From assembly GCF_988242995.1 (NCBI RefSeq), contig NZ_OZ547043.1: DNA of 64,000 nucleotides; one strand, written 5' to 3'. Positions 54,432-54,658 of the stretch are shown here, piece after piece (within the stretch, counting starts at the first letter, position 1; every line of letters starts with the position of its first letter). A program made the translations under genes and the position numbers. The notes below the pieces were generated by a model. The model worked only from the letters and a program-made list of their open reading frames with translations, did no database searches and had not been told where the DNA came from.

Positions 54432-54658
54432 GATGAAGCAAGGAGGTGCCCCATGCGTCAGTTTTATCAGCACTATTTTACCGCGACAGCGAAATTGTGC
54501 TGGTTGCGTTGGTTAAGCGTCCCACAACGATTAACCATGCTTGAAGAACTGATGCAGTGGGAGGGGAGTCATTCTGGCTACTGATTTGCGGACATCATGT
54601 GTGACTGAGTATTGGTGTTAATCGCCACGCCAGCAGTGATTATCTGCTGGCTTTTTTC
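54432..54658 (+). ncRNA. sgrS: Small regulatory RNA SgrS (dual-function; encodes SgrT)
   Basis: Begins about gatgaagcaagg, contains the sgrT ORF and the conserved ptsG-pairing seed (catcatgtgtgactgagtattggtgt), ends in a hairpin plus T-run terminator at 54629..54657. Confidence 0.85.
54453..54584 (+). CDS. sgrT: SgrT, 43-aa inhibitor of glucose uptake, encoded within SgrS
   Basis: ATG 54453 with SD aggagg; 43 codons MRQFYQHYFTATAKLCWLRWLSVPQRLTMLEELMQWEGSHSGY then TGA. Confidence 0.8.
   Translation: MRQFYQHYFTATAKLCWLRWLSVPQRLTMLEELMQWEGSHSGY

Follow-up and report, generated by a model that had tools for sequence, protein, structure and literature searches.

The experimentally characterized counterpart of the locus reported here is the sgrR-sgrS/sgrT locus of Escherichia coli K-12, whose allele has been the subject of nearly all mechanistic studies of seed usage, the Hfq module, setA read-through, and SgrT output. 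As the family literature has it, SgrR would switch on the divergent sgrS promoter under sugar-phosphate stress, and the 227-nt SgrS would bind Hfq via a 3' module comprising a U-rich stretch, a small hairpin, a terminator hairpin, and a U tail. The seed (nt 168-187) would pair with the ptsG ribosome-binding site, leading to a translation block and decay, and nucleotides next to the seed would pair within manX, such that SgrS is held to regulate ptsG and manXYZ in an Hfq-dependent manner. The 5' half of the RNA would be translated into the 43-aa SgrT, regarded as a direct inhibitor of the PtsG transporter. In K-12, a GGGGGTGCCCC hairpin inhibits sgrT translation, and homologs without this hairpin have been shown to produce active SgrT (Wadler & Vanderpool, PMC2760806). 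Of 15 E. coli strains, only 3 had the K-12 stem-loop sequestering the sgrT ribosome-binding site (RBS), the SgrS RNAs of CFT073 and O157:H7 are 88% identical to K-12 SgrS, and the sgrT start codon is lost in O157:H7, where the change from ATG to ATT is taken to abolish SgrT (Horler & Vanderpool 2009, NAR 37:5465, PMC2760817). At its 3' end, the K-12 sgrS terminator allows approximately 50% read-through into setA (Aiba laboratory, PMC5558911, PMC4509938). Seven or more T residues have been noted in the terminators of Hfq-binding sRNAs, and in engineered K-12 variants a stabilized stem led to a shorter U tail and loss of Hfq binding (Aiba laboratory, PMC5558911).

Here, we analyzed a 64,000-nt stretch of E. 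coli DNA (hereafter the window; contig NZ_OZ547043.1 of RefSeq assembly GCF_988242995.1), in which the 4 kb around sgrS were 100% identical to several porcine ETEC and O139:H1-related chromosomes. Rfam RF00534 matched positions 54432..54658 (+ strand) over the entire model (1-232 of 232) with 230.8 bits (E = 1e-65; gathering score 37), and no non-canonical pairs were flagged in the alignment. A sequence-only reading of this DNA had placed SgrS at 54432-54658, which are the exact ends of the RF00534 match, and had described a dual-function RNA with embedded sgrT, a description borne out by the scores of both RF00534 and the Pfam SgrT family (PF15894). The 227-nt RNA, a CFT073-type allele, lies divergent from sgrR between thiB (tbpA) and leuD (54692..55297), with a TPP riboswitch upstream of thiB (51567..51666, - strand; Rfam, 66.1 bits). 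The activator gene sgrR (52706..54364, - strand) was intact and encodes a 552-aa protein that matched the NCBIfam SgrR equivalog NF010149 with 1122.7 bits (cut-off 476), as well as Pfam SgrR_N. The divergent intergenic region (54365..54431), for which SgrR binding and a promoter role have been described (PMC2760817), carried two SNPs relative to K-12 (alignment columns 18 and 26), all other columns being invariant across five strains. By every sequence-level criterion tested, the window locus belongs to the SgrS, SgrT, and SgrR families. Strain CFSAN018748, whose sgrS was 100% identical to that of the window, differed from it at 8 positions over 6.2 kb. In RefSeq, sgrR carries a pseudogene flag, with an internal stop, in both CFSAN018748 (1275..2933) and K-12 DH1 (1278..2933).

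The window and K-12 RNAs share their length (227 versus 226-227 nt), architecture, and divergent sgrR. A base-by-base comparison of the window sgrS with K-12 (DH1) returned 29 differences, only 3 of which fell within nt 1-130 (98% identity) and 26 within nt 131-227; the statement, in the sequence-only reading, that the 3' region departs from K-12 was therefore correct. The onset of divergence was sharp, at sgrT codon 37. Across 5,426 complete E. coli genomes, 5,399 of which carried sgrS, identity to the window sgrS was bimodal, with 2,158 genomes at 95-100%, 3,241 at 80-90%, and none between. The window-type allele thus occurs in about 2,150 of the 5,426 genomes, or about 40%. It is already known, being the common CFT073/O157 type described in 2009, with which the window shares its allele class, the 3' half, the lack of an RBS stem-loop, and the lack of a downstream setA. 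The sgrS of E. coli M16807 was 98.7% identical to that of the window, from which it was separated by three SNPs. O157:H7 PV15-279 shared the 3' half of the window allele, had ATT at the sgrT start where the window retains ATG, and lacked setA. In the RefSeq annotation of PV15-279, PGAP calls sgrT an intact CDS (8508..8639, WP_001248768.1) despite the ATT start.

The sgrT CDS of the window (54453..54584, + strand) comprises 43 codons plus a stop and encodes the peptide MRQFYQHYFTATAKLCWLRWLSVPQRLTMLEELMQWEGSHSGY, with the TGA stop at 54582..54584 lying 8 nt ahead of the conserved base-pairing island that starts at 54593. The Shine-Dalgarno sequence AGGAGG (54441..54446, + strand), for which K-12 has AGGGGG, is separated from the ATG at 54453 by a 6-nt spacer. 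The open, ATG-initiated 43-codon frame upstream of the seed and the well-placed aggagg were both as the sequence-only reading had them. Pfam PF15894 matched residues 3-37 of the peptide with 49.6 bits (cut-off 27 bits), a profile search of the peptide against NCBIfam returned no SgrT match, and the identical protein in RefSeq, WP_001248769.1, is named 'glucose uptake inhibitor SgrT'. Residues 1-36 are the same in K-12 and the window except at residue 32 (E32/G32). Since divergence begins at codon 37, the peptide ends in EGSHSGY instead of the DDRNSES of K-12, and its seven C-terminal residues thus differ from those of the K-12 protein that has been tested. From the common CFT073-type tail (...HSDY), the window tail (...HSGY) differs by one residue. 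An intact 43-aa SgrT was also present in E. albertii, E. whittamii, and Escherichia sp. E1V33. Homologs of sgrT were taken as the longest ORF starting with ATG, a procedure that gave artefactual ORFs for K. pneumoniae, Raoultella, Siccibacter, and Yokenella, and the rows used were those of Escherichia, Citrobacter, and Salmonella.

The A at nt 13 of the window sgrS breaks the K-12 inverted repeat, and the local RBS hairpin was predicted at -0.4 kcal/mol, compared with -6.0 kcal/mol in K-12. Because A13 both creates a canonical Shine-Dalgarno sequence and abolishes the K-12 RBS hairpin, the window allele probably makes more SgrT than that of K-12. The sgrT region folded as a long imperfect helix in the MFE structure, and the 5' half of the RNA as a whole was extensively base-paired. 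This would fit an ORF that is untranslated in this strain and kept only since the same nucleotides build the 5' secondary structure of SgrS, as would O157:H7, in which the same allele has lost its ATG and the loss is evidently tolerated (PMC2760817). We consider this very improbable, however: the window sgrT has its ATG and a canonical AGGAGG at 6-nt spacing, the 43-codon length of the ORF was maintained across the five Escherichia lineages even though residues had been substituted, the peptide passed the Pfam SgrT threshold, and SgrT is made and active in homologs that lack the K-12 hairpin (PMC2760806). A spurious ORF was likewise considered for sgrT and ruled out by conservation.

Within the 3' half, which was approximately 27% divergent from K-12, a 26-nt base-pairing island (sgrS nt 162-187; 54593..54618, + strand) had no differences from K-12. 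It comprises the ptsG seed gtgtgactgagtattggtgt (54599..54618) and the manX-pairing nucleotides. Retention of the seed, asserted in the sequence-only reading, was thus confirmed, and alignment to Rfam SgrS and K-12 sgrS, which that reading had put forward as a check, gave a full-length RF00534 match and an unchanged island. A 22-nt core of the island was present in 44 enterobacterial species representatives. The Rfam architecture, in which an unpaired seed is followed by the small hairpin and the terminator, was recovered in the MFE fold of the window RNA. Seed nt 168-187 were single-stranded, and nt 1-4 and 7-11 were paired with nt 162-165 and 153-157.

Pairing with the ptsG leader, another check put forward from the sequence, was preserved when the leader of CFSAN018748, with its identical sgrS, was used. 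The only change in that leader relative to K-12 was at -41, outside the pairing site, and the core duplex between SgrS nt 167-188 and ptsG -29..-8 was retained. The predicted SgrS/ptsG duplex was -29.4 kcal/mol for the window lineage and -27.8 kcal/mol for the K-12 pair (shuffled mean -15.5, sd 3.3); these energies were computed with the interaction restricted to the single-stranded seed module of SgrS and the part of the target close to the RBS, as unrestricted RNAduplex runs of full-length SgrS against a 150-nt ptsG leader were uninformative. For manX, the first 72 nt did not vary among 4,949 of 5,423 genomes, and the duplex prediction, which relies on this near-invariance across E. coli, gave similar energies for the two alleles (-28.9 kcal/mol for the window versus -30.6 kcal/mol for K-12). 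Just upstream of the island, nt 159-161 read GGA in the window and CUG in K-12. Given the hypothesis that C159 and U160 help to open the 162-165 stem for manX pairing (Rice & Vanderpool, PMC3089445), this change could possibly alter manX regulation.

Both hairpins of the predicted Hfq module were present. The small hairpin UGGUG/UUAAU/CGCCA (54613..54627, + strand), seen in the MFE fold ahead of the terminator and a putative part of the Hfq-binding module, was predicted at -5.4 kcal/mol, compared with -4.6 kcal/mol for GGUG/UAAAAU/CACC in K-12; other Escherichia and the Citrobacter freundii group share this variant. A terminator scan identified a Rho-independent terminator at 54629..54663 (+ strand), with an 8-bp stem (GCCAGCAG-UGAUUAU-CUGCUGGC, 54629..54651) followed by T6-C-T5. 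The stem was slightly stronger than that of K-12 (-14.1 versus -12.6 kcal/mol) because its closing pair is G:C and not G:U. The T-run, interrupted after six T where K-12 has T8, is shorter than the 'seven or more' noted for Hfq-binding sRNAs (PMC5558911). We do not read the T6-C tail as a defect, since it is the norm in most enterobacterial homologs, including those of Citrobacter and Enterobacter. Both terminator read-through and Hfq loading may differ between the alleles, judging from these differences in stem and tail.

Downstream of sgrS, the leuD stop codon starts only 33 nt past the end of the RNA, with no setA in the intervening junction (54659..54691). K-12-type loci have setA placed between sgrS and leuD; the window is therefore not a K-12-type sgrS-setA operon, and no SetA arm would be reached by read-through of the sgrS terminator, because setA is absent. 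Sliding comparison with K-12 delimited a haplotype-defining divergent block (54563..54790) that comprises sgrS nt 132-227, the junction, and the last ~100 nt of leuD. Mismatches rose from 0-2 per 50 nt to 14-15 per 50 nt within the block, which also contained a 1.2-kb gap where K-12 has setA. Background identity was regained by about position 54794, and divergence flanking the block was 0-6% on both sides. Among the complete E. coli genomes, setA occurred in 3,241 of 5,426, all of the haplotype other than that of the window. The window-type junction, with the sgrS 3' half contiguous to leuD, was present in 2,143 genomes and the K-12-type junction, from the sgrS 3' half to setA, in 3,239; together they accounted for 5,382 of the 5,399 sgrS-bearing genomes, the 17 others belonging to neither count. 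On the evidence of these junctions, the type of sgrS 3' half and the presence or absence of setA define two haplotypes that exclude one another across E. coli genomes. The synteny figure of Horler & Vanderpool probably already shows the setA difference for their three strains. In our literature search on setA, sgrS, and phylogroup, and on allelic recombination, no paper was found that states the exclusivity of the haplotypes or a derived K-12 form.

With 26 differences in 97 nt from the experimentally studied K-12 RNA, a T-run broken after six T, setA missing from the window, and, in CFSAN018748, a near-identical strain, an sgrR with an internal stop and a pseudogene flag, the window allele might be taken for a decaying or non-functional sgrS in an eroding locus. 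We regard such decay as extremely unlikely. The seed island was 100% conserved and both 3' hairpins were kept with compatible changes; the T6-C tail is usual in Citrobacter, Enterobacter, and others; the window sgrR was intact, as was sgrT, with a better Shine-Dalgarno sequence than that of K-12; and the same allele is maintained in about 2,150 E. coli genomes and four other Escherichia lineages. A disrupted seed, a disrupted terminator hairpin, or an interrupted sgrT, any of which the sequence-only reading had said would count against its call, was not what we found: the seed was undisrupted, the hairpin intact, and the frame uninterrupted. A pseudo-sRNA reading of the window sgrS was also considered and ruled out by conservation. 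Taken at the level of sequence, the window almost certainly carries a functional sgrR-sgrS/sgrT glucose-phosphate-stress locus of E. coli in its setA-less, CFT073-type haplotype.

To compare the two haplotypes with those of other taxa, species-representative genomes were scanned with a degenerate seed pattern of 19 specified bases, which returned 47 loci and missed E. fergusonii. The polarity comparison used 44 enterobacterial loci, with those labelled Veillonella MAG, Phormidium tenue, and Woesearchaeota MAG set aside; these three seed-pattern matches were taken as chance or contamination. Outside Escherichia, the order sgrR-sgrS-setA-leuD was the rule, occurring in Salmonella, Citrobacter, Klebsiella, Raoultella, Enterobacter, Superficieibacter, Siccibacter, and Pluralibacter. 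Within the genus, setA was lacking and the 3' half was of the window type in each of four lineages, namely E. albertii, E. whittamii, Escherichia sp. E1V33, and the divergent 'E. coli' representative L017. Identity to these four in nt 131-161 was 87-97% for the window, compared with 55-61% for K-12, and in nt 1-130 the window was 92-95% identical to them. E. albertii, E. whittamii, and E1V33 share with the window the AGGAGG Shine-Dalgarno sequence, a 43-aa SgrT with an EGS[HD]S[DE]Y tail, 95% identity in nt 188-227, and the setA-less junction to leuD; these three differ from it in the spacer (GTGTCCC versus GTGCCCC) and by 5-8% in nt 1-130. Among E. coli genomes, the K-12-type junction was at least 99% identical in 3,237 of 3,242, whereas window-type junctions ranged down to 90-95%. 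Because the K-12 junction is near-monomorphic and the window type is diverse, these data point to a young K-12 haplotype and an old window haplotype.

From these comparisons, the window sgrS is probably the ancestral Escherichia form, the K-12 sgrS 3' half, setA, and leuD end having been imported together. In the specific form that we favor with moderate confidence, K-12 SgrS would be a chimera produced when homologous recombination brought in a ~1.5-kb block that runs from sgrS nt 132-227 through setA to the 3' end of leuD. The recipient would then, on balance, have been an ancestor of K-12-like E. coli and Shigella. We similarly lean toward a block made up of the last seven sgrT codons, the spacer, the small hairpin, the terminator, setA, and the leuD 3' end, and it seems somewhat more plausible than otherwise that only the 26-nt seed island and the terminator stem were held identical by selection. 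No close match to the K-12 block that might mark its donor was found among non-Escherichia representatives, in which SetA protein identity was 77-94%. Of the species-representative loci, only that of Escherichia sp. MOD1-EC7003 carried the K-12 block, at 99-100%, and this strain is possibly either the donor or a second recipient. MOD1-EC7003 was ~93% identical to the window in the sgrR segment, with an sgrS 3' half 100% identical to K-12 and SetA at 99% protein identity, and by its sequence it is probably not E. coli proper.

The polarity could also run in reverse, with the K-12 sgrS-setA arrangement inherited vertically and the window type arising by setA deletion and replacement of the 3' half, then spreading by recombination. 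The gene order in Salmonella, Citrobacter, Klebsiella, Raoultella, Enterobacter, and others is as this would predict; K-12 SetA is 87-89% identical to that of Salmonella and Citrobacter, much like its neighbors SgrR (85-88%) and LeuD (88-92%), and in nt 188-227 the 3' module of the window type is 92% identical to that of the Citrobacter freundii group. The pattern within Escherichia makes it unlikely, however. Four non-coli lineages carry the window type at the divergence expected of vertical descent (87-97% in the block versus 92-95% in nt 1-130), the K-12-type block shows almost no variation across 3,239 genomes, in contrast to the diverse window type, and in nt 131-161 the identity of the K-12 block to all Escherichia reaches only 55-61%, between flanks at 98%. 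Retention of setA as an old polymorphism is, strictly speaking, conceivable given the family-wide sgrS-setA-leuD order.

The SgrS finding itself adds nothing new; its mildly new by-product is the genome-scale exclusivity of the two haplotypes, with that of K-12 probably derived. The K-12 allele is atypical in three ways, namely its RBS hairpin, T8 tail, and setA operon, and is probably a recombinant haplotype. The window form is carried by about 40% of sequenced E. coli, including ExPEC, EHEC, and porcine ETEC/edema-disease strains. If K-12 SgrS is indeed a chimera, the two haplotypes (about 40% and 60%) may differ in SgrT output, manX regulation, terminator read-through, Hfq loading, and the SetA arm, and results obtained in K-12 may not carry over quantitatively to B2, D, E, and related pathogens.

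Several further features of the window were recorded. A patch of ~100 nt within sgrR (53140..53240) was 12-15% divergent from all other sampled Escherichia, including K-12, M16807, and O157, and the 200 nt that follow it were 97-99% identical to other E. coli; the patch resembles a recombination tract acquired in this lineage alone from a source outside the sample. A separate patch, at 52900..52980, is seen in K-12. A 189-aa ORF (51907..52476, + strand) located between sgrR and the thiB TPP riboswitch had no match in Pfam or NCBIfam, and RefSeq names it the T3SS effector EspY2. This ORF was absent from K-12 and from M16807, which carries a window-type sgrS, and was split by IS1203 in O157:H7 PV15-279; at most 1,043 genomes covered at least 80% of a 4-kb query containing it. 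Elsewhere in the window, Rfam matches above gathering were found for the ES003 sRNA (5744..5796, + strand; 87.4 bits), naRNA4/CssrE (35842..35921, - strand; 77.3 bits), and the leu operon leader (59417..59566, - strand; 141.1 bits).
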